Of a stretch of 16,159 bases of DNA, positions 1 to 16,159 are shown one piece after another; the first letter of the stretch is position 1, and each line of letters starts with the position of its first letter. Source of the DNA: a virus (lineage: Duplodnaviria > Heunggongvirae > Uroviricota > Caudoviricetes); the IMG/VR virus record IMGVR_UViG_2690316131_000017; one strand, written 5' to 3'. The notes under the pieces were generated by a model. The model made no database searches. It was not told the origin of the DNA and saw nothing but the letters and a program-made list of their open reading frames with translations. The position numbers and the translations under genes were made by a program.

Positions 1-1461
1 ATGAAAAAATTACTGCGTCTTTTTTTCCCGCTCTCACTGCGGGTACGTTTTCTGTTGGCAACGGCTGCGGTAGTACTGGTGCTTTCGCTTGCCTACGGAA
101 TGGTCGCGCTGATCGGTTATAGCGTCAGTTTCGATAAAACTACGTTTCGGCTGTTACGTGGCGAGAGCAATCTGTTCTATACCCTTGCGAAGTGGGAAAA
201 CAATAAGTTGCATGTCGAGTTACCCGAAAATATCGACAAGCAAAGCCCCACCATGACGCTAATTTATGATGAGAACGGGCAGCTTTTATGGGCGCAACGT
301 GACGTGCCCTGGCTGATGAAGATGATCCAGCCTGACTGGCTGAAATCGAATGGTTTTCATGAAATTGAAGCGGATGTTAACGATACCAGCCTCTTGCTGA
401 GTGGAGATCATTCGATACAGCAACAGTTGCAGGAAGTGCGGGAAGATGATGACGACGCGGAGATGACCCACTCGGTGGCAGTAAACGTCTACCCGGCAAC
501 ATCGCGGATGCCAAAATTAACCATTGTGGTGGTGGATACCATTCCGGTGGAGCTAAAAAGTTCCTATATGGTCTGGAGCTGGTTTATCTATGTGCTCTCA
601 GCCAATCTGCTGTTAGTGATCCCGCTGCTGTGGGTCGCCGCCTGGTGGAGTTTACGCCCCATCGAAGCCCTGGCAAAAGAAGTCCGCGAACTGGAAGAAC
701 ATAACCGCGAATTGCTCAATCCAGCCACAACGCGAGAACTGACCAGTCTGGTACGAAACCTGAACCGATTGTTAAAAAGTGAACGCGAACGTTACGACAA
801 ATACCGTACGACGCTCACCGACCTGACCCATAGTCTGAAAACGCCACTGGCGGTGCTGCAAAGTACGCTGCGTTCTCTGCGTAGTGAAAAGATGAGCGTC
901 AGTGATGCTGAGCCGGTAATGCTGGAGCAAATCAGCCGCATTTCACAGCAAATTGGCTACTACCTGCATCGTGCCAGTATGCGCGGCGGGACATTGCTCA
1001 GCCGCGAGCTGCATCCGGTCGCCCCACTGCTGGACAATCTCACCTCAGCGCTGAACAAAGTGTATCAACGCAAAGGGGTCAATATCTCTCTCGATATTTC
1101 GCCAGAGATCAGCTTTGTCGGTGAGCAGAACGATTTTGTCGAGGTGATGGGCAACGTGCTGGATAATGCCTGTAAATATTGCCTCGAGTTTGTCGAAATT
1201 TCTGCAAGGCAAACCGACGAGCATCTCTATATTGTGGTCGAGGATGATGGCCCCGGTATTCCATTAAGCAAGCGAGAGGTCATTTTCGACCGTGGTCAAC
1301 GGGTTGATACTTTACGCCCTGGGCAAGGTGTAGGGCTGGCGGTAGCCCGCGAAATCACCGAGCAATATGAGGGTAAAATCGTCGCCGGAGAGAGCATGCT
1401 GGGCGGTGCGCGGATGGAGGTGATTTTTGGTCGCCAGCATTCTGCGCCGAAAGATGAATAA
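1..1461 (+). CDS. phoQ: sensor histidine kinase PhoQ (complete, 486 aa)
   Basis: ATG at 1-3, TAA at 1459-1461. Translation shows two TM segments flanking a periplasmic domain with an acidic patch (EDDDDAEM), an H-box ([11 protein letters not shown]) and HATPase boxes (DNACKY, DDGPGI, GQGVGL). Length and sequence match my recollection of E. coli PhoQ. Confidence 0.96.
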
Positions 1462-2421: not shown

Positions 2422-4083
2422 TTACACCCCGCTAAATTCTTCCAGTTTCTGGCGGTGGCTGTCGCTTATATCAAAAGCAAAATCCTCATGCTCTGCCTGG
2501 AATGTACCAAACGCCATCAGCGCCGCCACGCTCGGGTCTATCTTGTTCGGTGATTTTTTCTTGTTCGGCTTGATATTGGCGTTCGCGTCACTCTGCATCA
2601 CGACGTTACTCATCGACCAGGACAACACCGGATCGCCACGATGCACAATCACCCTGCGGTTAACAAAAACTTCGAACGATTTCGCCGCCGGACTGAATCT
2701 GAGGTAGGTTTGCGGGAACGGCTCCACCTCAAAGCCTGCCCCCTGTAATTGCGTCCTGAGATGCGTGGCGTTCCACGTATCAAAGCCCACCAGCCTGATA
2801 TTAAATTTCTCCGCATCCTGCATGATGTCATCTCTGATCCGGTCGTAATCAATGCAGTCACCTGGCGTTGTGCGTATCCAGCCCGCTTTAGCCCACTGGC
2901 GATAGACAGCGCGGTTTTTATTGGCGGGGTTCTGTAGCTGGAACTCCGGCAGATAATGACGGGAAACCAGCATGATATTTTTACCGACCGGAAAGGCATA
3001 GCACACGCTGGAAATATCGCTGGTTGATGATAAGTCCAGCCCCGCGTAACACTCCTGCCCGTGTAAATCTTCCTCCGTGAACGTTCCGGCACACTCAGCC
3101 CATGCGCCGTTACCCATCCACGGGGTAGCCCCCTGGCACCAGATATTAAATCGCTTTGTCATCATCTCCACCCATTGCGACGGAATACCCCGCGCTTTCT
3201 GGATGGTTGAGGCCAGTTTTTCACGATCCACGGAAACATCGATGTTAGGGTTAGCCTTTATCCACATCGCCGGATCATCAACCTCGTTTTCGTCGTCCAG
3301 TTCGTAAATCAGTACAAAAATTGAATCGTTGACCTCTTCGCCGTCCAGGATCTGGCAGCAATAATCATAGTGCTGCTTACAGGCTGAAACGACGTTACTG
3401 CCCGATGTGGTAATGGCAAATAACAGCCCTTCGGGACGTGCGCCCATCCCCAGCTCAAGCGCGGAATAAACGCCGTTATCGGGGTGTAGGTGGTATTCGT
3501 CCACGATGGAAAGGCTTGGGTTTGTGCCCTCGATGGTTGCCGCTTTTGCTGCCAGCGGCTTTAACAGGCTGTTGCTTTTCGGGTGCATCACCTTGTGGGC
3601 CTGAATATTCACCCGCCTGCGTAACGGTCGGGATAAAAGGCACATCTGACGCGCATCATCAAAAACGATCCGCGCCTGGTCACGGCTCACCGCTGCGGTG
3701 TAAATATCCTGCTGCCCGTTCTCCATAATCAGAAACCAGTTAGCCAGAATCGCGGCGGTCGTGGATTTCGCATTTTTGCGCGGCACTTCGATAAAGGCGC
3801 TCGTGTATTTGCGCCGTCCGGTGGCCTTAACCTTAAAGCCGAGGATGCACGCAAAGGCGAACTGCTGCCACGGCTCCAGCTCAATGGGTCTGCCACGCAT
3901 CGGCCCTTTTACGTGCGGGCACACCCTGGAAAAGGCAATAAACCGCTCCACAACCTCACGATCGAACGTGTAAAGGGGGCTTTCAAGGTCCGAAAAGTAC
4001 CGTTTAACGGCCTGTTTCAGCCGTTTACAGGCCGGAATTTTGCCCGTTTTTACGTCTTCTGCGTACTTATTCCAGGCGGTCAA
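2422..4083 (-). CDS. terminase large subunit (HK97-type)
   Basis: 553 aa with an N-terminal ATPase P-loop-like segment (PRKNAKST) and a C-terminal nuclease-type region with acidic residues. The ORF-track start at 4083 is TTG with a GAGGA Shine-Dalgarno, overlapping the TerS 3' end by 17 nt. Confidence 0.88.
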   Translation of the reverse strand: MTAWNKYAEDVKTGKIPACKRLKQAVKRYFSDLESPLYTFDREVVERFIAFSRVCPHVKGPMRGRPIELEPWQQFAFACILGFKVKATGRRKYTSAFIEVPRKNAKSTTAAILANWFLIMENGQQDIYTAAVSRDQARIVFDDARQMCLLSRPLRRRVNIQAHKVMHPKSNSLLKPLAAKAATIEGTNPSLSIVDEYHLHPDNGVYSALELGMGARPEGLLFAITTSGSNVVSACKQHYDYCCQILDGEEVNDSIFVLIYELDDENEVDDPAMWIKANPNIDVSVDREKLASTIQKARGIPSQWVEMMTKRFNIWCQGATPWMGNGAWAECAGTFTEEDLHGQECYAGLDLSSTSDISSVCYAFPVGKNIMLVSRHYLPEFQLQNPANKNRAVYRQWAKAGWIRTTPGDCIDYDRIRDDIMQDAEKFNIRLVGFDTWNATHLRTQLQGAGFEVEPFPQTYLRFSPAAKSFEVFVNRRVIVHRGDPVLSWSMSNVVMQSDANANIKPNKKKSPNKIDPSVAALMAFGTFQAEHEDFAFDISDSHRQKLEEFSGV

Positions 4084-5449: not shown

Positions 5450-5784
5450 TTTTCCGCGCCCTCACGACAAAGAATTTCAAGGCGTGTCCTGGCGACATCC
5501 GGCAACGGCTGCCCGATGATATTCAGTACACGCCCCGCCAGCGGCCCCGTACTGACCTTTATCCGGCTGGTGGCGTTGATGTCCTTCCGGTACCGTATCC
5601 AGATCCTTACGGTACCAATCGCCAGCTCTGCGCCCGATGAAATGGCCTCCTTGCTGCTGATCATGTTCACGCTTGCCCAGAGTGTGTGACCGTCCTCCCA
5701 CGTTTCGAGTATTTCGCCCGTCATGGCTCTGGTCTGTTTCAGGGTCTGAATCGTTATCCTGTCACGCAGTCGCCCTATGTTCAT
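5446..5784 (-). CDS. phage head closure / head-tail adaptor protein
   Basis: Pattern RITIQ ... WASV ... IRYR ... ATSRI is typical of head-tail joining proteins. I prefer the ATG at 5784 (ATGA overlap with the portal stop) to the track start at 5826. Confidence 0.75.
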   Translation of the reverse strand: MNIGRLRDRITIQTLKQTRAMTGEILETWEDGHTLWASVNMISSKEAISSGAELAIGTVRIWIRYRKDINATSRIKVSTGPLAGRVLNIIGQPLPDVARTRLEILCREGAEK

Positions 5785-6992
5785 TCCGTTTTTTCTCCCT
5801 CGCTGATTTTTACTTCCTGTTTCCATGCCTGGCTGAACTCATCACCACCATCACGCGGTGACAGTCCTTCACGTTCGCGGGCTTCGTTCGGGCACATAAC
5901 GCCGGATTTGATGCCGCGCTCATAGGTGGCAAAGCGTTCGCCAGGTGTGGCCCGTAACAGGTCCGCGCTGTCAAACTCCACCTGATACCGGATACCAGGT
6001 ACAGGCGAGGCCACCAGCAGGGCGTTTTTTATCTGCTGCTCAAAGTTCGCCAGCCACGGGCGCATCGTCATGGTGAGAAATGCGCGGCTTGCCTCGCTGA
6101 AATTGCTGTAGGTGCTGTTGCTGTATTCCTGCAAAAAAATCGGCGAGACGTTGAACATTCGGGCGATGTCTTCAATGGTAAAGCGACGGGAGGCCAGCCA
6201 TTCAGCATCCTGATTACTCATGCCCAGCTGCTGATAGCTCATACCCCCTTCAAGGATGGGCGTTTTTCCGGCGTTTCTGGCCCCTTTGTAGCGTTCCAGT
6301 GCGGCTAATGCCTGTTTGCCCTTCACGCCGTCCAGCCATTCGCCTGACGTGATAACCCCTGCCGCCATCATGCCATCACGCATCACGCTCGCGCCGTGGC
6401 GTTGTTGGGCCAGCCCAAGCCCCAGCGATTCGCGGCAGATGGTTACAGGTGAGCGCCCCATAAAGCCGTCATCCGTGGAGTAACGAAGGTGAAGTACTTC
6501 CCACGGTAAATAGTTGTGGGTGTTTCCGGTGTAGGCGTCAGTGATGCAATAGCGCCAGTTGTGTTCTCCTGTCTGCTCCACGTTCACCGACTGCGGCGGG
6601 TAAGGATGTAAAGCCGCCGGAAAACCATCACGCCCCCACTGAATAACCGCATAAGCATTACCGTTTAACAGGCAGTGGCGGATCATCATTCGCTTAAACT
6701 AGTAGGGGGTTTGCCATGCGTTCGGGCGCTCGTTGAAGATGTGATCGACCGGATGAGAATCAAGCCACTCGCGGGCCTCCTTCCCCTTCTCATTGCGTAC
6801 CAGGTACAGGTAGCATGGCATAGTAGCCACCGCCTCAGAGATGACCGTAACGGCGTTCATGACGGCAGGCAGTGATTCCGCTGTCCCCGATGATACGTAC
6901 TCACCCGCCCCCGTGTTCGATGTGCCGGCCAGCGCCATAAATTCATCAAGCGTCATGCTGCGCTGCTCTTTTTTTCTTCTGAAAGGCCACAT
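5781..6992 (-). pseudogene. HK97-family portal protein interrupted by one in-frame TAG (codon 98, plus coordinates 6699-6701)
   Basis: Track ORFs 6699-6992 (97 aa, portal N-terminus AVMNAVTVISEAVATMPCYLY) and 5781-6689 (302 aa, portal core with FTIEDIARMFNVSP) are in the same frame, separated only by TAG and three sense codons. Combined length ~403 codons is portal-sized. Confidence 0.8.
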
Positions 6993-6993
6993 A

Positions 6994-7566
6994 TCACACC
7001 CCCGCTAAATCCGCCCACCAGCGGCGATTATCCGCACGCGGCATTTTTTCGGGGTGCTGCTCATACAGGGAACGGCGGGCCAGCTCCACGCCGGAATCGG
7101 GGTAAGCCGGTACCGATGTAACGGTAATTTCGTACAGTTCCGCCACCAGCACGGTGCGCACGCATGGATCTGTTGTGGTATCCCATACATCCTTACGGGA
7201 GCGAAAGCCAAAGCTCATGCCGGATATATCACCACGTTTAACCAGTTCGATAACGTCGCGCCCTGTACTGGTATCCGGTGGGGTCAGTTCAAAGCGTAAC
7301 CCTGTTTCATCCTCTTCCAGTTTCAGCGTGCCGGAACGGGTGCGCCCCAGTAACATACTGTGGTCATGCTCATACAGGCCGCGAACGTCATTACCCGCCG
7401 CAAGCCATTCAGTAAACGCCCCCCGCTGGAATTTTTCGTAAAACTCACCCCATAACAGTTCTGAAAGCTTATCCCAGCGAACAACGTAGCCTGTAAGCGT
7501 GTTGCTGCCGCTGGTGGTGATTTCCGATGACCGGATTTCCATACTCTTCATAATTTTTTCACCCAT
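6994..7566 (-). CDS. HK97-family prohead protease (S78-type)
   Basis: 190 aa; the pattern (GYVVRWDKLSE ... GAFTEWL ... HDHSMLLGRT ... GMSFGF ... SVPAYPDSGVE) matches the prohead protease family. Stop is 1 nt before the portal ATG. Confidence 0.85.
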   Translation of the reverse strand: MGEKIMKSMEIRSSEITTSGSNTLTGYVVRWDKLSELLWGEFYEKFQRGAFTEWLAAGNDVRGLYEHDHSMLLGRTRSGTLKLEEDETGLRFELTPPDTSTGRDVIELVKRGDISGMSFGFRSRKDVWDTTTDPCVRTVLVAELYEITVTSVPAYPDSGVELARRSLYEQHPEKMPRADNRRWWADLAGV

Positions 7567-7575
7567 AAAACACTA

Positions 7576-7595
7576 AAGGGGCTTTTAAGCCCCTT
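7576..7595 (-). terminator. stem-loop between the capsid and protease genes (AAGGGGCTT..AAGCCCCTT), candidate partial terminator
   Basis: 9-bp inverted repeat in the 39-bp capsid-protease gap, followed on the minus-strand RNA by a U-rich stretch (UAGUGUUUU). Confidence 0.4.
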
Positions 7596-7605
7596 CTGTA
7601 TGCTG

Positions 7606-8763
7606 TTAATCGTCGTCCTGTGGCAGTTCCAGAATCTTGATCGCGTTCGAATCCACCACGCCACCGCCTAAATATTTCTGCGTGAAAATTTTGATGAAGC
7701 CCGGCTCTGTGAGGTTGTCCGGTCTGGTGCGAACACCTGTTTCGTGATCAACAATGTAGTAACCGCGTTTGAAGTCACCCAGGGCAATAACGTTATCAGG
7801 CATAAACTCCAGATATTCGACCGGAAGGCCCAGCAACGTATCAGGATCACCCGCCTGTAAACGGTCACGCCAGATGTAATCACCGTTCGCGTTCTTCACC
7901 TTCTGGAGTTTTGCCGCCGTCGTGGAGTTAACCACCCAGACCGCGTTTTTGCGGTATTTTTTACGTAATGCAAATTTCAGGTCGATCAGCGGGTCCGCAG
8001 ATGTCCACGCCAGAGATTCGGAAGGTTTAATTACCTGCAACGTACCAAAATCACGCTCTTTGTCGTTCTTCTCTGCACGGGGTACGGATAAAAAGCCTTT
8101 TGCTTTTTTGTCACCGTCGCCCACAACCAGATCGCTTTCTTCGGTTTCCGTGAAGGTGTCGCCAATCTCGCCCGTCAGCCATGAAAGGATGTCCACATCG
8201 GAAAAATCCACGATTTCCTGTGTGGTGCGCGGGTACGCATAGACCGGATACAGCTTAATGCTCACCTCGTTAATCTGCGGGGTGCTGGTCTGTTCGCGTG
8301 CCTTACCCTCTTCACCGTGGTTAACGGTCGCACCGCCAGCGGAAACAAGCTGCTTAAACTCGTTGCTGCTGATTTTCTTCACGGTACAGATGCGGCGCAT
8401 GGTGGATTCATCCGCCAGCATTCGCATGATTTCGGTGTTCAGTTCGGGGATAACGGTATAACCACCATCAGCGGGAACGCCTGTACTTAATGCGCGGGTT
8501 TCACCCGTCAGAATGTAGTTTCGTAGTTCTGCGGGGTCAGTGGTCTGACTGCTTTTACCTGGCTTGCTGCGCTCTTCGTCTGCAATGGCTTCAAGGCGGG
8601 AAATGTCTTTATCGAGGGATTCAGCTTTAGCGCGTAATTCGTCAAATTTTGCGCCCTCAGCATCGTTAAGACTGCGGTTTTCTTTTTCAGCGTTCTCCAG
8701 CATGTCGCGCATCTGATTTTTAATGGCGGTTTTCTGCTGGCGTAATTCGATTATTCTCGGCAT
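7606..8763 (-). CDS. major capsid protein, HK97 fold, with N-terminal coiled-coil delta (scaffold) domain
   Basis: N-terminal ~100 aa is heptad-rich and charged, followed by an HK97-like capsid body. No separate scaffold gene. First ATG at 8763; the track ORF extends to a TTG at 8808. Confidence 0.85.
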   Translation of the reverse strand: MPRIIELRQQKTAIKNQMRDMLENAEKENRSLNDAEGAKFDELRAKAESLDKDISRLEAIADEERSKPGKSSQTTDPAELRNYILTGETRALSTGVPADGGYTVIPELNTEIMRMLADESTMRRICTVKKISSNEFKQLVSAGGATVNHGEEGKAREQTSTPQINEVSIKLYPVYAYPRTTQEIVDFSDVDILSWLTGEIGDTFTETEESDLVVGDGDKKAKGFLSVPRAEKNDKERDFGTLQVIKPSESLAWTSADPLIDLKFALRKKYRKNAVWVVNSTTAAKLQKVKNANGDYIWRDRLQAGDPDTLLGLPVEYLEFMPDNVIALGDFKRGYYIVDHETGVRTRPDNLTEPGFIKIFTQKYLGGGVVDSNAIKILELPQDDD

Positions 8764-8978
8764 AAAAAAAAGTCCTGGGGTTAAGTAAGGAACTCCAGGA
8801 CGCGGCAAACACTCAACCGTTTTTCATAAGGAAATCAGCAATCGCACCGATCGTTTTCCCGCCTGGTAATGAATATTGGCGAGCACATTAACAGGCGGGA
8901 AAGTGGCCCCAGCGTCCTGGCACCACGGGCGAGAATAATCATGATTCAGTTCGGGTAAAATATGCCGATCCGCTCAGT

Positions 8979-10188: not shown

Positions 10189-11943
10189 TTATAAAAACGC
10201 GTCACAATCATCCGTTGTAATTGCGTTGGTCTGCGTTACTCCCTTAACTTTCCGCGTAATATATTCATGTCCGTAAACTTTTGCCGCTGGCTTCATGGCC
10301 TTGCTGAACTCAGCCACGTTTAGCGGTTTGCTCCTGCCTGCGTATGCCATAAACGCCAGATAGACGCGGTAAAGGCTGTTCCTGGTCGTGTACTTCACTG
10401 AATCGCCACCGCCACCCATCATCAGGCCGCGCGCTTCCTCCAGAAAATTCAGGAACTGGCAAAACTCAATAACCGGATCCGTCTGTTGCTTTATTGCCAG
10501 TGCTTCATCACCGTCGCGCTGTTCCAGGAGTAAAGCCCGTGCCTTTTCAGGGTCGGCAAAGTTCGCCAGTAATCGGCGGATAATCACAGGGATTTCAGCC
10601 GCAATCTTTTCCGGTAGCTCCCTGTCTTTTTCGGCCTCACTGACGATATTGTCGAAACGGAAAATCACGCGACGACGTGCCACACCTCCGGCCCGTTCGG
10701 TGAATATCATCGGGTTGTTGTTGGTCGCCAGCACCACCGCCCTGATTACCGCCGTGAAACGCTTTTCATATTTCGGGTTAATTTCCACGGGGTCGCCGCC
10801 CGTGATTTTCTTGATGCCCGTTCCTTCGCCTGTATATTTCGGCTGGTCTGCCAGGACGATAAGACGACTCCCGACAACCTGCGCACGTCCACCAGCATCA
10901 TCAAGCGATGTCATCTCAGCGCTTACCGTGTTCTGTTTCCCTGCCAGAAGGCTGGCTATGTGTGTGAATGTACTTTTACCGCTCCCGCCGTCTCCGGTGG
11001 CCTCAATAAACATCTGCCAGTCGTACCGGTTCGCCATAATCATGTACAGCGCGGCACATATACGCATCATCTTGCGCGGGTCTTTTCCGGCTGCGTGCTC
11101 AAGCCATTTATGAAAGTTTGGCGCGTTGTCGCGGATATTCTCCCCTGGTGCTGGTGGCGTGTACTCAATGCCGTTATGCGTGGTGATCCAGTTCTCCGGC
11201 GTGTGCGGGGAAAATTCCCCCGTTTTCAGGTCAAGCACACCATTGGCGAACGGCAGCAAATCGCCGGACGGTTCGCCCATTGGTTCGGCAATAACTTTTA
11301 ACGCTTCCACGGTGTTATTGATTACGCGCTTGCTGAAAGTGGCCCTGTGCTCTGAATAGATCGCCACCATTTCGCGGCTCAGTGCCATTGTGCTGACCGG
11401 ACACCATACCCCGCCGCGCCATACGTGAACGATTTCACTTTCAGGATGTACGCAAACGCCATCAAAGCGCCCGGCAAGCAGCTGCGCGCGCTCACTGTCC
11501 GCCATCTGCGAAAGTTGCGCCTTTTGCTTTACCGGAAGCTCAATGACCAGACCATCAGAAAGATTCTGGCGCTCACGGGCCAGATATTCGCGCCAGTTCT
11601 CCACCTCCTGAACGTGCATTCCCTCAGGGTAAAAATTTGCATCCTGTACACCTGCCGCCGCCAGCTTCTGACCAATCGCCTTTATCATTACAGGCTCAAG
11701 ATGTCCGGCCCTGAATATGCGTACTGATTTTCGGCCTTCCGGCACAATTTGCAGCTTATCCAGTTCGGATAACTGCTGCTCCCCAAGCCACACAGGAGGC
11801 TCATTATCTCCGGCCATACGCGCGTCATGTTCCTGCCATTGTTTTGCGTGTGACCAGGCATCACTACCCGCAAAAATAATGACTTCTGTTTCTTTGTGTT
11901 TTATGCCGCGTGACTGCTGTTTTACGTTCGGTGCCAGTTTCAT
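10189..11943 (-). CDS. P4-family primase/helicase (replication initiator)
   Basis: 584 aa with a Walker A P-loop (GDGGSGKST) in a D5/P4-type helicase region preceded by a primase-like N-terminal domain. ATG at 11943 overlaps the upstream stop (ATGA). Adjacent to the iteron ori. Confidence 0.88.
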   Translation of the reverse strand: MKLAPNVKQQSRGIKHKETEVIIFAGSDAWSHAKQWQEHDARMAGDNEPPVWLGEQQLSELDKLQIVPEGRKSVRIFRAGHLEPVMIKAIGQKLAAAGVQDANFYPEGMHVQEVENWREYLARERQNLSDGLVIELPVKQKAQLSQMADSERAQLLAGRFDGVCVHPESEIVHVWRGGVWCPVSTMALSREMVAIYSEHRATFSKRVINNTVEALKVIAEPMGEPSGDLLPFANGVLDLKTGEFSPHTPENWITTHNGIEYTPPAPGENIRDNAPNFHKWLEHAAGKDPRKMMRICAALYMIMANRYDWQMFIEATGDGGSGKSTFTHIASLLAGKQNTVSAEMTSLDDAGGRAQVVGSRLIVLADQPKYTGEGTGIKKITGGDPVEINPKYEKRFTAVIRAVVLATNNNPMIFTERAGGVARRRVIFRFDNIVSEAEKDRELPEKIAAEIPVIIRRLLANFADPEKARALLLEQRDGDEALAIKQQTDPVIEFCQFLNFLEEARGLMMGGGGDSVKYTTRNSLYRVYLAFMAYAGRSKPLNVAEFSKAMKPAAKVYGHEYITRKVKGVTQTNAITTDDCDAFL

Positions 11944-12704: not shown

Positions 12705-12936
12705 AACCCCCCCCATTTTCACAATCAGCAATCAGGATGGCTTTGGCCTCATTCAGCGCCATATCCGCACTAAGTTGCATAACCGCCAGCGAATGAGGAA
12801 CGAAAGCCCCGGCATATTCTGTTTCACTGGTGGCGTGCTTATGCGCCCTGTCAGCAATAACAGAAATATCAATAAGCGCGTGCATCAGCGTAGTGAGCGC
12901 GGCGGCAGCTGCGTCCGGACGGATGTTATTGCACAT
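12697..12936 (-). CDS. hypothetical protein (79 aa from internal ATG; track ORF to 12993)
   Basis: ATG at 12936 is preceded by a GGAGGGG Shine-Dalgarno. Ala-rich. Confidence 0.45.
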   Translation of the reverse strand: MCNNIRPDAAAAALTTLMHALIDISVIADRAHKHATSETEYAGAFVPHSLAVMQLSADMALNEAKAILIADCENGGGYA

Positions 12937-13159
12937 GGTGTACCCCTCCGCATTTTTTTTCGTTAGAAATAAGCGTTCTTCTTTCCTGTTCATCGCTCAG
13001 GAATACGCAGACCTCACCGCTAAGGCGTTTAAGTAAGCCGATGATTGCCCCTGATTCGCTGTCGGTCATCATGCCAGGGTAATCCTCTGCCAGTGCGCAA
13101 ATGACTTCGATTTGGTGGGCGCGTTCTGCTGCCTGTTGTAGTGTGATTTCCTGGCTCAT
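12926..13159 (-). CDS. hypothetical protein (77 aa from internal ATG; track ORF to 13225)
   Basis: ATG (MSQEIT...) overlaps the stop of the upstream gene (ATGA). Coordinates follow the ORF-track frame. Confidence 0.45.
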   Translation of the reverse strand: MSQEITLQQAAERAHQIEVICALAEDYPGMMTDSESGAIIGLLKRLSGEVCVFLSDEQERRTLISNEKKCGGVHHVQ

Positions 13160-13356
13160 AAGCCTACCCCCTGACGAATACGGGCGGCGAATACCATCAC
13201 GCAGCCAGCCGGAGATTGCTGGCATGCTTCCTGTTCGCTGGTGGCCTCAATGGTAATCACGCGCGGTTGTGCCGTGCTCAGGGCGATAAAACGCCAGATG
13301 TATTTATTCAGGTTGTGCGAGTCCCGCCCTTGCGGGTGTGTGGTATGATTTCTCAT
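13156..13356 (-). CDS. hypothetical protein (66 aa), first gene of the leftward early operon
   Basis: C-terminal 66 codons of the 387-aa track ORF. ATG at 13354-13356 with a GAGGT Shine-Dalgarno, directly downstream of the operator-bearing promoter. The rest of the long ORF is judged spurious. Confidence 0.4.
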   Translation of the reverse strand: MRNHTTHPQGRDSHNLNKYIWRFIALSTAQPRVITIEATSEQEACQQSPAGCVMVFAARIRQGVGL

Positions 13357-13453
13357 AGCTACCTCGATACTTTCGCTATCGTTGGTGGTTAGACGCCCTG
13401 CATGTGTTGCGAGCACTGCGGGGCGTTGCTTAATTTGAGTGACAAAACTCAAA

Positions 13454-13540
13454 CTGTGCGCACAGATTAAAATCATGTGTGCGCACATGTCAATACTTAA
13501 CATCTCATTTTTTTTGCTGTATTGTGTGCGCCCATAAAGT
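13454..13540. promoter_or_regulatory. divergent promoter/operator switch with TGTGCGCACA palindromes
   Basis: Perfect 12-bp palindrome CTGTGCGCACAG (13454-13465), 10-bp palindrome TGTGCGCACA (13478-13487) and a half-site TGTGCGC (about 13525-13531). Leftward promoter read on the minus strand: TTGACA (13488-13493), 16-bp spacer, TTTAAT (13466-13471). Candidate rightward promoter TTGCTG / TAAAGT. Confidence 0.55.
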
Positions 13541-13561
13541 CCATTTAAGTGAGGTGCATCA

Positions 13562-13759
13562 ATGTCTAGCGGTAACACAAACAACAAATCAGCAAAGAAA
13601 AATATTCGATTCCCGCATGAGCTTATAGATGGGATTGATGCCAGCGTTGAACAAGAAAAATTAACTAATCCTAGTGCTAATTTTTCCGCATGGGTCTTAG
13701 ATGCCTGTGGACGCAAATTAAAATATGAACAGCGCCGGAAGGCCAAAGAATCAGAATAA
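13562..13759 (+). CDS. small DNA-binding-like protein (65 aa), candidate island repressor; possibly YlcI/YnfO-like
   Basis: ATG at 13562 with a GTGAGGTG Shine-Dalgarno. The segment KKNIRFPHELIDGIDASVEQE ... NFSAWVLDACGRKL has a strand-helix-helix pattern suggestive of a ribbon-helix-helix fold. The YlcI/YnfO (DUF3950) resemblance is from memory and unverified. Confidence 0.55.
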   Translation: MSSGNTNNKSAKKNIRFPHELIDGIDASVEQEKLTNPSANFSAWVLDACGRKLKYEQRRKAKESE

Positions 13760-13816
13760 TCACTATCAGCGCCGTGGTGTGAGGAACTACGGCGCATTTC
13801 TTTACAGGAGTAGACA

Positions 13817-14002
13817 ATGAACAACGAAGAATTACGGGAAATCGCATTATCCATACTTGAAAGACAGGTAGAAAAAAAATTAAGAGAAATGGATGAAATG
13901 CCTGACCATGAACAGGAAGCAAGGCCAAAAAGATTTGCCCTTGAGGATTTTCTTAAAAATTGCCCAAGAAAGATGAGATCGTGGCGTTGTTGTCCGCCCT
14001 GA
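13817..14002 (+). CDS. hypothetical protein (61 aa)
   Basis: ATG at 13817 with a GGAG Shine-Dalgarno; co-directional with the upstream gene and followed by a strong terminator. Confidence 0.5.
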   Translation: MNNEELREIALSILERQVEKKLREMDEMPDHEQEARPKRFALEDFLKNCPRKMRSWRCCPP

Positions 14003-14079
14003 TGACAGATTTGCCAACCAGCCAAAAATGTGGCATCGTTGTCGATACATAGTGTAATCAACATGTATATCATATTTTT

Positions 14080-14106
14080 GCGACCATCATAGGTCGCATT
14101 TTTTTT
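14080..14106 (+). terminator. intrinsic terminator (GCGACC-atcata-GGTCGC followed by T8)
   Basis: Perfect 6-bp GC-rich stem followed by an 8-T run; about 80 bp downstream of the plus-strand gene pair. Confidence 0.7.
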
Positions 14107-14376
14107 GCCTGTAATCCGGCAATTGTGGCGCTTCTTCACACAGTTGATATAATTCCAATGCTCATATTTATTTTTTGTGCAGCAGGTTAATCGTTCACAA
14201 AGGCGCTCAGGTAACTGGGCGCTTTTTGTTATGCCTGAAAAACCCCAATTTTGTTGTTTTTCAGTTTCACCAGGGCGAACGAATCCCCGCCTACGTTCTG
14301 GCGTATATTCAATCTTCATGGTTATAGCTCTGTGTTCAGATGATTGATGTGTGGCGGCTGCGTGCCGCCAGCGTGA

Positions 14377-14565
14377 TTAATGAACTGCCTTGCAGCTATC
14401 CTTCCAGGCCAGAACCTCGGATAAAGACCAGCCAACGGAACGACCGCCAAGTTTACGACGTGATGGGAATTGTCCGGCCTTTTCCAGGCGGTAGCGACAC
14501 GTACGGCTAAGGCCGGTTAGTTTTTCGCATTCTTTTTCACGTATAAACCGATCAGTGCTTAACAC
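14377..14565 (-). CDS. alpA: AlpA-family transcriptional regulator / excisionase-like protein
   Basis: 62 aa; the motif LTGLSRTCRYRLEKAGQFPSRRKLGGRSVGWSLSEVLAW matches the AlpA/excisionase winged-helix family. GTG start at 14565 with an AAGGGGG Shine-Dalgarno 5 nt upstream. Confidence 0.8.
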   Translation of the reverse strand: MLSTDRFIREKECEKLTGLSRTCRYRLEKAGQFPSRRKLGGRSVGWSLSEVLAWKDSCKAVH

Positions 14566-14837
14566 TATTGCCCCCTTTCGTTTCTTAAAGAGTCATCAGG
14601 TGTCTTATTGTGTCGTATTGTTCCCGCTAGAGTGATAAATGGCAAATACTGAGGATGTATGATTTACAGAAAATGAAACAGTAAGAATAAAATCTTTTAA
14701 ATTCACGTTAATACAAAGGCATAAAATATTGTTTCATGCCTTTTTTCTCGCTCTTTAAAGAGTGATTCGCTAGTGTATAAAAAACCAGTAACGCATTAAA
14801 AATCAGCCACTTATAAATCCGTACGCTTTTTCGCCTC

Positions 14838-14929: not shown

Positions 14930-16159
14930 TTATTTTCTTCTGGCTACTGGTAGCGTGGTTACGTTTTCATGTGTTCCCGCCAGTATCCCTAACCGCTCCG
15001 TCCACATATCCAGCGCATTGCGTTTAGCATCCAGATAACGGGAATGATTATAAACTCGCTGCATTCCTGGCATCTGGTGGCCTGTAAGCTGCTCCACGAC
15101 GTGAGAATCCACGCCTAAATCGTTCAGCATCGTTGTAAAGGTGCGCCGGATGTCATGTAGTGACCAGTGAGGGTGATTTAGCCTCCTGTGCGCTAATCTG
15201 CCGTACTGCGACACGCTTGTTTCCTGTTTCACTTCCCCCAGCAATAAACCCGTGTGCCTGTTCTGCTCCACCAGCTGCGTGACGAACGGCAGTATTGCTT
15301 CCGGTATGGGCCGGAATATTGCCACCTTCGTTTTGCTGTGTTCTTTCGGCACGGTCCAGAGCATTTCGGTAAAATCCCACTCGCTGATCTCCGATAACCT
15401 CAGTTCTACCGTCCGGCATCCGAACACAATCAGGAGGCGGATTAGCGCGATGTAGTAGGGGGAGAATATTTTTTTGTCCAGTGCCTGCAATAATTCGCCA
15501 AGTTCTTTGTTGCTTAAGACACGCTCGCTTATATCCGGTTTTTTCCCAACGTCCGCCACACTCATATCATCAAGAACGTTGCTGATTGCATAGCGCCGCT
15601 TCCGGCAGAACTTAAGCGCCTGCTTGCATGTCTGTAGCAGGAACCCGGCGGAAACAGGGGCTTGCTTTGCCACCCGATCAAAACAGGCCAGCCAGTGCCG
15701 TAGCTCGCATTTATCCAGCGGCATAGGGCCAATGTGCTGTATTACGTGATTATTTAGCCGCTTTTTCAGTGGGTCATAATCCACACGGTTTTCCTTTGCG
15801 TACGACTCAAGCCAGTAGGTGAGCGTATCACCAACCGTTACCGGCTTTAACGCTTCCTGTACGGTGTAATTCATCTCATGACGTGGATTTTTCCCCTCAG
15901 CCAGCCATGCGCGACACTGGGCGGCTTTTTCCCTGGCTGATTTCAGACTCAGATCAGGATAATTTCCCAGCTTAATGCGTTCCGGTGGTGCCCCCCTTCC
16001 CGTTCCGGCCCTGTAAGTGAAATACCAGGTTAAAAGGCCGCTGGTTGAATGCCTGACGCTCAGATTTCCACCGTCATTAAGAAAGGCTGTTTTTTGGGCG
16101 GGTGTGCCGTTGATTTTCCTTAGCAGTGTATCGCTCAGTTTGTTAAGTGCTCTGCTCAT
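14930..16159 (-). CDS. tyrosine integrase with N-terminal arm-binding (DUF4102-like) domain
   Basis: 409 aa. N-terminal arm-binding-type pattern (LSDTLLRKI ... LNDGGNLSV ... WYFTYR ... IKLGNYPDLSLKSAREKA) and a C-terminal catalytic region with R..HxxR..Y-type residues (HDIRRTF ... HSRY). The ATG is the last 3 nt of the window, so the upstream region and att site are not visible. Confidence 0.9.
   Translation of the reverse strand: MSRALNKLSDTLLRKINGTPAQKTAFLNDGGNLSVRHSTSGLLTWYFTYRAGTGRGAPPERIKLGNYPDLSLKSAREKAAQCRAWLAEGKNPRHEMNYTVQEALKPVTVGDTLTYWLESYAKENRVDYDPLKKRLNNHVIQHIGPMPLDKCELRHWLACFDRVAKQAPVSAGFLLQTCKQALKFCRKRRYAISNVLDDMSVADVGKKPDISERVLSNKELGELLQALDKKIFSPYYIALIRLLIVFGCRTVELRLSEISEWDFTEMLWTVPKEHSKTKVAIFRPIPEAILPFVTQLVEQNRHTGLLLGEVKQETSVSQYGRLAHRRLNHPHWSLHDIRRTFTTMLNDLGVDSHVVEQLTGHQMPGMQRVYNHSRYLDAKRNALDMWTERLGILAGTHENVTTLPVARRK

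Follow-up and report, generated by a model that had tools for sequence, protein, structure and literature searches.

A small YlcI-like protein as candidate operator-binding repressor of a Gram-negative phage-inducible chromosomal island

Background

Which factor, if any, represses the phage-inducible chromosomal islands (PICIs) of Gram-negative bacteria was left open in their founding paper of 2018, in which whether a global repressor exists was called unclear and only an activator, AlpA, was known (PMC6092414). The role of AlpA is experimentally established: alpA was required for the induction of both EcCICFT073 and EcCIEDL933, and in EcCICFT073 its overexpression was sufficient (PMC6092414). 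The question is raised anew by IMG/VR record IMGVR_UViG_2690316131_000017, a stretch of 16,159 nucleotides (referred to as the window) that runs from phoQ (1-1461, plus strand) through to the start codon of the tyrosine integrase gene int (14930-16159, minus strand). The phoQ-to-int stretch is a single integrated element of about 15 kb, inserted beside phoQ and read on the minus strand, and two small plus-strand open reading frames (ORFs), ORF1 and ORF2, lie within it at 13562-14002.

An earlier note on this DNA, made from the sequence alone, had proposed this pair as the candidate master repressor of the island and as a possibly uncharacterised control mechanism. Its description of the locus was confirmed. 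ORF1 (13562-13759, 65 aa) and ORF2 (13817-14002, 61 aa) both start with ATG, and each is preceded at approximately 7 nt by a Shine-Dalgarno sequence (GAGGTG and AGGAG, respectively). That they are the only plus-strand genes of the island agrees with the annotation of a 99% identical RefSeq island, in which YlcI is the sole plus-strand coding sequence from the left end to int. The unit points away from the leftward operon, starts at an operator region with divergent predicted promoters, and is closed by an intrinsic terminator (14079-14106, plus strand; hairpin and T8, -12.2 kcal/mol, z -4.2), and no large CI- or Stl-like repressor was detected among the ORFs of the island. Points that go beyond that note are a hairpin between the two ORFs, the absence of ORF2 from most related islands, an open minus-strand frame, and the part played by AlpA.

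The reading that is reasonably probable in our judgment is that ORF1 is a small operator-binding immunity repressor of an internal leftward promoter (P_L), nested antisense in a frame that resembles eta of P4, and that ORF2 is optional.

Family and predicted fold of ORF1

ORF1 is a member of the YlcI/YnfO (DUF3950) family, with 59 bits against NF041551 (cut-off 30), 28.3 bits against PF13132 (cut-off 25), and an E value of 1.4e-27 against phrog_949, and is referred to as ylcI-like or simply ylcI. Its homologues form 115 clusters distributed across the Enterobacterales, and R16-F17-P18 is invariant in the family alignment, where it is followed by two helical segments. AlphaFold2, run on the family alignment, modelled residues 14-18 as extended and residues 19-35 and 41-64 as helices with a predicted local distance difference test (pLDDT) score of 74. 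This succession of an N-terminal beta-strand and two helices is that of the ribbon-helix-helix (RHH) superfamily, in agreement with the pattern that had been read earlier from the protein sequence.

No significant match to a curated RHH model or to a solved RHH protein was obtained for the family. Sub-threshold Pfam matches of family members included HicB_lk_antitox (7 members, best E 0.0021), Arc (0.0092), NikA-like (0.026), CopG_antitoxin (0.13), and RHH_1 (0.24), all of which we take to be RHH-type families. Profile searches of the PDB with YlcI, with an Arc-like allele, and with a long allele of the same slot found no solved-structure relative, and a part in anti-phage defence was dismissed after a PADLOC scan gave no match. 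The RHH assignment of ORF1 is probable, not certain.

RHH proteins such as Arc, MetJ, and CopG read the major groove with the alternating face of their strand. In the YlcI proteins, the residues that change with the operator, 12 and 14, are spaced i, i+2, i+4 with the invariant Arg16, which would place the three on a single strand face. An alternating face of this kind is what an RHH strand inserted into the major groove would present, and it lends indirect support to a dimeric, two-stranded antiparallel ribbon.

Operators and predicted promoters

The gap between the start of the first annotated leftward gene, which is icd/kil-like (13356), and ORF1 is 205 bp long. One palindrome occurs three times within 80 bp of it: the core TGTGCGCACA is exact at 13455 and 13478, and a copy with one mismatch, TGTGCGCCCA, is located at 13525. 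The corresponding operators are designated O1 (ACTGTGCGCACAGA, 13453-13466), O2 (TGTGTGCGCACATG, 13476-13489), and O3 (TTGTGTGCGCCCAT, 13522-13535). The predicted P_L (13466-13493, minus strand) consists of a -35 hexamer TTGACA (13493 to 13488), a 16-nt spacer, and a -10 hexamer TTTAAT (13471 to 13466), and the predicted rightward promoter of ylcI, P_R (13497-13525, plus strand), of TTAACA, a 17-nt spacer, and TATTGT. O1 is located at the predicted start site of P_L, O2 fills the spacer between its -35 and -10 hexamers, and O3 follows P_R directly, overlapping its -10/+1 region. Repeated candidate sites are found on both predicted promoters, and the arrangement, as it is read from the DNA, is that of a back-to-back promoter pair with operators placed so that they would repress P_L and autoregulate P_R.

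The leader of the predicted leftward transcript contains a hairpin (13393-13426, minus strand; -17.5 kcal/mol, z -2.5) followed by an invariant CTAACCAC-AACG. Compensatory changes were found at seven of its nine pairs across 25 loci, and the hairpin is kept even in islands that carry other repressor alleles.

Conservation of the module and covariation of arm and operator

One genome per species was scanned by YlcI homology, which yielded 38 loci with YlcI proteins 42-82% identical, from Serratia, Rahnella, Klebsiella, Enterobacter, Pectobacterium, Brenneria, Pantoea, Xenorhabdus, Proteus, Morganella, Arsenophonus, Erwinia, Gilliamella, Orbus, and a Pasteurellaceae taxon. Their common order is pri (minus strand), the first leftward gene (minus strand), approximately 200 bp, ylcI (plus strand), 0.1-2 kb of variable cargo DNA, alpA (minus strand), and int (minus strand). 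The intergenic layout is kept base for base, and O1, O2, and O3 are present in all 38 loci in the form (G)GTG-N6-CAC(C). The position of O1 is preserved with an allele-specific core, O2 abuts a conserved TTGAC(A/G) in every locus, and a TAT(A/T/G)GT box ahead of ylcI is conserved in the locus alignment. Across 40 sequences, the -35 hexamer of P_L had a mean of 5.1 of 6 consensus matches and the -10 hexamer a mean of 4.05 of 6, at a spacing of 16-18 nt.

The six central operator bases are shared by the three sites within a locus and differ between loci (TGCGCA, TGCACC, CACAAA, TTTAAA, GGGGTA, CGGCCA, or TCCGCA). They are paired with the four residues that precede IRFP in the protein: AKKN with TGCGCA, AKKH with TG(A/C)ACC, TTKG with CA(C/T)A(A/T)A, xYKG with TTTAAA, and (K/R)RKD with TCCGCA; the operators matching the TTKG and xYKG arms are GTGCACAAACAC and GTGTTTAAACAC. 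These pairings recur in unrelated genera. The distance between operator cores was correlated with that between arms (residues 8-15) with a Mantel r of 0.52 (p 1e-4), and the correlation was 0.51 in a partial Mantel test that controlled for the rest of the protein and 0.45 in one that controlled for the non-operator intergenic DNA between the operators and the arm codons. The rest of the protein, with the arm controlled, was correlated with the operator core at an r of only 0.03. The strongest single protein columns were 12, 5, 14, and 11. Locus pairs with the same residues 12-14 differed at 3.3 of 16 core bases when the rest of the protein was 66% identical, and pairs with different residues 12-14 differed at 7.3 of 16 when the rest was 80% identical. 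The residues expected to set specificity change together with the operator, and the operator core appears from these comparisons to track ORF1 residues 5, 11, 12, and 14, with no such link to its remaining residues, to alpA, int, or pri, or to the gene that comes first in the leftward direction.

The same DNA can be read without a functional P_L, the RHH protein being an autoregulator of its own plus-strand cargo unit, O1 and O2 being upstream elements of P_R, and the leftward genes having the alpA promoter as their sole source of transcription. It is common for RHH proteins to autoregulate small operons, the ylcI-alpA stretch is a variable cargo zone of 0.1-2 kb, the -10 hexamer of P_L in the window is imperfect and was not listed by the promoter scan, and the leftward stretch from alpA onward is one open frame. 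TTGAC(A/G), however, is near-invariant and fixed beside O2 in the 40 sequences while its neighbours vary, a -10-like hexamer follows 16-18 nt on, and two of the three operators are located outside the core of P_R. In most loci ylcI is also monocistronic with its own terminator, so that there would be little cargo to regulate, and P4 has a constitutive promoter of its own inside the corresponding region (PMC10111431). We consider this explanation unlikely, although it is the strongest of the alternatives.

Alleles in the repressor slot

A scan of IMG/VR for two exact copies of TGTGCGCACA 8-20 bp apart returned 26 loci, 20 of which had an adjacent ylcI, in most cases 98-100% identical to ORF1. 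The neighbouring alleles of these 20 were far more diverse, with identities of 36-100% for AlpA, 22-97% for Int, 41-95% for Pri, and 45-98% for the Icd-like protein. AlpA, the Icd-like product, and the primase were accordingly rejected as operator binders, since operator and YlcI remain associated across varying alleles of these genes. As a search for operator pairs in helper phages, the same scan gave island-like contexts, 20 of the 26 with ylcI adjacent, and no recognisable helper phage.

In E. coli islands without this ylcI allele, the same slot is occupied by another small RHH-like gene with a triple palindrome of its own. Three loci (L041, L044, and L077) have Arc-like genes of 59-64 aa with TGTAATG..CATTACA or GGTGTACAC, two (L047 and L076) have a YlcI of 101 aa with GGTATTCAC, and the prototype island EcCICFT073 (L048) has a YlcI of 59 aa, encoded at NC_004431 1380473-1380652, with GGTGTGGCCCAC. 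As far as sequence comparison goes, allele swapping in this slot has the mosaic pattern of immunity regions.

A proposal that the operators are bound by another factor (AlpA, the Icd-like or eta-like product, or a helper or host protein), with YlcI acting elsewhere, for instance close to cos, can draw on the homologues of lambda, DLP12, and Qin, which are located beside cos or nohD and not beside a replication operon. It is difficult to reconcile with an operator type that goes with the YlcI arm, whichever alpA, int, pri, and icd alleles are present; loci L006 and L007, for example, share their operators and, apart from one C-terminal substitution, their YlcI, with different first leftward genes. 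The palindrome changes as well when a different RHH allele is present in the slot, and we regard this proposal as improbable.

Rearranged forms of the slot were also observed. Locus L074 has two repressor-type modules in tandem (7464-7658 and 8223-8399), and L044 has a rearranged duplicate of leader and operators (3001-3567). The module junctions in both fall at a conserved GCGCCGT..ACGGCGC hairpin, which suggests that this hairpin is a recombination joint between modules.

A long antisense frame and the parallel with P4

The frame of the icd/kil-like gene (13356 to 13156, minus strand; NF033153, 62 bits) contains no stop in the 340 codons that precede its start, being open from 14376 to 13159 and reaching the stop codon of alpA (14377-14379). 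The eta-like ORF so defined has 387 codons (13156-14319, minus strand), with an ATG at 14319, 55 nt after alpA and in the frame of alpA, and the icd/kil-like gene is nested at its end. It crosses the leader hairpin, O1-O3, and both promoters, and runs antisense through ylcI, the hairpin between the ORFs, ORF2, and the terminator. When the sequence of 13357-14319 was shuffled, the longest open run had a mean of 82 codons and a maximum of 178, compared with the 321 observed.

In 22 of 35 loci, this frame continues without a stop for at least 150 codons (median 254), compared with closure after 3-4 codons in the other two frames. Wherever it is open, the leftward start and the ylcI ATG are separated by a distance that equals 1 modulo 3, with 11 distinct lengths between 142 and 220; changes in intergenic length are therefore confined to multiples of three. 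The phase is the one in which ylcI and ORF2 share their third codon positions with the antisense frame, so that substitution patterns cannot separate the two strands.

Translations of the long frame have a middle part rich in Cys and Ser. The possibility that it encodes a recognisable Bro-network protein was abandoned after no Pfam match was found in 10 loci. The part that encodes its N-terminus (14179-14319, minus strand) resembles a deletion derivative of a longer version in EcCICFT073 (L048 4200-4586, minus strand), which holds a Bro-N-like stretch, SESGFYKLI; the window-type copy of the long ORF is labelled an incomplete pseudogene by PGAP.

That the long minus-strand ORF is the real gene, and that ORF1 and ORF2 are shadow ORFs conserved through coding on the opposite strand, is a reading to which the openness far beyond chance, the fixed phase, and the inseparable third positions all lend themselves, as do the pseudogene fragments that PGAP calls on the minus strand across ORF2 in some records. 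YlcI/YnfO, however, is a curated family that is also found in phages with no such long antisense frame known, ylcI has its own Shine-Dalgarno sequence, promoter, and terminator, and the long-frame translations have the composition and lack the Pfam matches mentioned above. The translation of eta is moreover important for anti-termination in P4 (PMC10111431), so that openness alone may be the selected trait. Shadow ORFs are accordingly given very little credence here.

A long ORF beside alpA with an Icd/Kil-like end and a shorter in-frame gene nested in it is the arrangement of the eta/kil region of P4. The P4 ORF at 8168-8812 overlaps vis, which encodes an AlpA homologue, begins inside it, and holds the CI RNA and seqA, and the C-terminus of the eta/kil ORF is the same Icd-like domain (NF033153, 74 bits). 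According to the summary in PMC10111431, which cites Forti et al. 1999, a constitutive promoter within eta is silenced by termination mediated by CI and seqA. The same text describes Kil as a truncated nested product and states that full-length eta is made solely when the upstream late promoter is used, its translation being coupled to the alpA homologue and blocking termination.

RNAs of the P4 kind were not found in the window: Rfam gave no match of any kind at the gathering score, C4 (CI) and isrK (seqA) included, and 12800-14800 at E<=5 gave matches at chance level only, whereas both RNAs were found in P4 as a positive control. P4-like RNA immunity was rejected for the window on these grounds. 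Judged by its layout, the window has the P4 skeleton without its RNAs, and in their stead an antisense gene for a putative RHH protein and DNA operators on the internal promoter. The suggestion of a wholly uncharacterised control mechanism was therefore not upheld, as the layout copies the vis-eta/kil immunity region of P4 with a protein in the place of CI RNA.

Two further elements were noted along the long frame. A GC-rich hairpin, TGGCGGC-NNNNN-GCCGCCA, is located between the alpA stop and the long-ORF ATG (14351-14374, either strand) and is kept in L042 and L048; it may take part in coupling alpA to the long frame or in attenuation between the two. No conserved minus-strand terminator was found in the alpA-icd interval. 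On the plus strand, a perfect extended -10 element, TGATATAAT, is followed after approximately 55 nt by the hairpin GCGCTCAG-GTAA-CTGGGCGC and T5 (14143-14230), an element kept in L042 and EcCICFT073 (L048) with compensatory stem changes and with sub-threshold Rfam matches only. It is a candidate antisense small RNA of about 65-75 nt, located within the stretch that encodes the N-terminus of the long minus-strand ORF.

ORF2 and the hairpin between the ORFs

ORF2 encodes a helical protein, annotated in other records as WP_001058301.1, that belongs to a narrow family. Its homologues formed two clusters in a search of 5.8 billion proteins and six representatives (50% identity clusters) by exhaustive HMMER, 41-86% identical, with the family motifs ALSILERQ and RPKxFALExFLK. 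AlphaFold2 predicted a long N-terminal helix (residues 3-27, pLDDT >90), and no family, toxin, defence, or known-fold match was obtained in Pfam, NCBIfam, and PHROG-type profiles, PADLOC, or a fold search. The hidden Markov model of the family had matches in E. coli-type islands only and in none of the 38 genus-diverse loci. In the E. coli-type islands, ORF2 always stands after the GCGCCGT..ACGGCGC hairpin, behind three different first genes or first in line, and in most other genera a terminator comes directly after ylcI.

ORF2 was thus rejected as a conserved partner of ORF1. It is probably a real accessory gene outside the conserved core and not the defining half of a two-gene repressor module. 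Of the original proposal, the candidacy of ORF1 as an operator-binding repressor stands, by virtue of the covariation of arm and operator, and that of the pair as a unit does not. A rank of master repressor would be a further inference, AlpA being the known activator.

The hairpin between ylcI and ORF2 is GC-rich with a ATTTCTTT tail (13769-13805, plus strand; stem at 13769-13795 with 10 pairs, -21.1 kcal/mol, z -3.6) and a weak T tract. It is a candidate leaky terminator or attenuator and the junction between modules. In the predicted fold of 13760-13812 (plus strand), the U-rich tail of the hairpin pairs with the Shine-Dalgarno sequence of ORF2 (AUUUCU with AGGAGU), and because of this pairing the translation of ORF2 may be masked in a read-through transcript.

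The least probable of the explanations is a type II toxin-antitoxin pair that stabilises the island, with ORF1 as RHH antitoxin and ORF2 as toxin: a small RHH gene, a small second gene, and an autoregulatory palindrome do resemble such an operon, and weak matches to HicB-like and VapB antitoxin RHH domains were seen, but no conserved co-transcribed toxin was found, ORF2 having the distribution and the empty toxin, defence, and fold searches described above, being parted from ylcI by a strong hairpin, and having homologues behind unrelated first genes or first in line.

Proposed mechanism

On the reading that ORF1 is an operator-binding repressor, YlcI dimers would bind O1-O3 through the N-terminal arm and beta-strand, with residues 12 and 14 set according to specificity and Arg16 constant. 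In the integrated state, YlcI made from P_R would occupy O1-O3 and keep P_L, and with it the icd/kil-like and replication genes, off, and occupancy of O3 would limit its own synthesis. A helper phage would then switch on alpA, and by analogy with P4 a single translated unit that comprises alpA, the long frame, and the replication genes would be transcribed from the alpA promoter. The repressed P_L would thereby be bypassed, ribosomes trailing the polymerase would protect the unit from Rho, and its transcription would run head-on into that of ylcI. ORF2 would be an accessory helical protein, dispensable for the circuit. DNA binding, repression, promoter activity, and read-through of the alpA transcript are what we infer from the layout and conservation of the locus, and every step beyond the binding of YlcI to O1-O3 is conditional to a greater degree.

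Several observations weigh against this reading. AlpA overexpression alone induces EcCICFT073 (PMC6092414), and from the sufficiency of AlpA it follows that the RHH protein is no absolute block and may control only the internal promoter. The phage homologues in lambda, DLP12, and Qin, beside cos or nohD, have a different context, and the searchable literature contains no binding, expression, or genetic data for YlcI/YnfO proteins. P_L and P_R are consensus matches, and the -10 hexamer of P_L in the window was missed by the promoter scan. The structural scores for the RHH fold are modest, and the sub-threshold list that holds the RHH-type families also holds Trypco2 (11 members), DUF7438, and others. 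The loci were chosen via YlcI, and the operators are at most 110 bp from the arm codons, so that linkage could inflate the covariation; the partial Mantel tests lessen this concern without removing it, and locus pairs are not independent.

A bolder version is offered tentatively, as a possibility that we would not yet back: YlcI-type RHH proteins would be the repressors so far missing from Gram-negative PICIs, the prototype EcCICFT073 and the capsid-forming islands among them. A simple code between residues 11-14 and the centre of GTG-N6-CAC would set many immunity types, the repressor genes would lie antisense in a translated eta-like "ribosome track", and helper-triggered, AlpA-driven transcription would both bypass P_L and silence the repressor head-on.

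Genomic context of the island

The alpA gene (PF05930, 61.8 bits; 14377-14565, minus strand) is convergent with ylcI and ORF2, and the D5_N/DUF5906 primase gene pri is located at 10189-11943 (minus strand). The small minus-strand genes include the icd-like gene and a DUF4222 gene, and Pfam matches identified structural genes for a major capsid protein, a prohead protease, a portal, an HNH protein, and the small and large terminase subunits; near-identical islands of E. coli genomes have the same annotation in RefSeq. The element, about 15 kb at a chromosomal att site, has int, alpA, a primase, and its own capsid, protease, portal, connector, HNH, and terminase genes, and it is a capsid-forming PICI of the type described by Alqurainy et al. 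(bioRxiv 10.1101/2022.09.08.507074). Its portal gene (5781-6992, minus strand) has an in-frame premature stop at codon 98 that leaves ORFs of 97 aa and 302 aa, and because the gene is split in this way, capsid assembly by this copy of the island has probably been lost.

Relation to known systems and significance

With P4 the window shares the gene order and strand logic of int, an AlpA/Vis-type regulator, a long ORF with an Icd/Kil-like end (NF033153), and a D5-type primase, and in both an early promoter lies inside the long ORF, that of the window being predicted. They differ in that P4 immunity resides in CI RNA and seqA on the same strand, whereas the window has a protein gene on the opposite strand and three DNA operators.

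Very small RHH repressors with specificity in the N-terminal arm and strand, palindromic operators on back-to-back promoters, and autoregulation are known from Arc and Mnt of P22 immI. The putative RHH protein of the window and its palindromic operators over divergent predicted promoters are similar, and some islands have an Arc-like allele in the slot. ORF1, however, has no significant sequence match to Arc or Mnt, there are three operators instead of one per promoter, ylcI is antisense-nested, and its predicted target is the icd/kil and replication operon and not an antirepressor gene. The CopG, omega, and ParG repressors and the HicB, VapB, and ParD antitoxins occur in other genetic contexts, the window being without a partner toxin or partition gene.

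Stl/Rpr of the Gram-positive PICIs (SaPIs) is likewise encoded beside int, divergent from the replication operon, and is proposed to silence the island until a helper acts (PMC6092414). Stl is a large helix-turn-helix protein with a helper-sensing domain, for which the 65 residues of YlcI leave no room, and Gram-negative PICIs need the activator AlpA in addition.

The closest relatives in phages are YlcI of DLP12, YnfO of Qin, and a previously unannotated 64-aa homologue of lambda (J02459, 48303 to 48109, minus strand; NF041551, 37.6 bits), located approximately 200 bp from cos and opposite to late transcription. These belong to the same curated family, with 41-43% identity to ORF1, but are located beside cos and Nu1/nohD, opposite to late transcription, and have no icd/replication operon next to them. 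Inspection by eye of the DNA upstream of the lambda homologue showed no triple operator of this kind. Since lambdoid phages are helpers of E. coli PICIs, cross-talk between a YlcI paralogue of a lambdoid helper and E. coli PICIs is conceivable.

Repressors of the RHH type at divergent promoters are known, and so are nested leaders like that of P4; it is the combination, in which a candidate protein immunity factor encoded antisense within the eta-like frame is joined with an arm-operator code, that appears to be new. No paper that ties YlcI/YnfO, DUF3950, or an RHH protein to the control of satellites was found in the searchable literature. The module of a predicted RHH protein and a triple operator is located at the same place in dozens of genera, including the tractable EcCICFT073, and this opens the question of a repressor of Gram-negative PICIs to simple experiments. 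If the proposal is true, it would provide the first function for DUF3950, including the y-genes ylcI and ynfO of E. coli K-12, it would account for the abundance of immunity-like variants among these islands, it would document a conserved antisense-nested gene pair whose "intergenic" operator region stays open for translation of the opposite strand, and it would constitute a protein-based, convergent-transcription version of the RNA immunity of P4.

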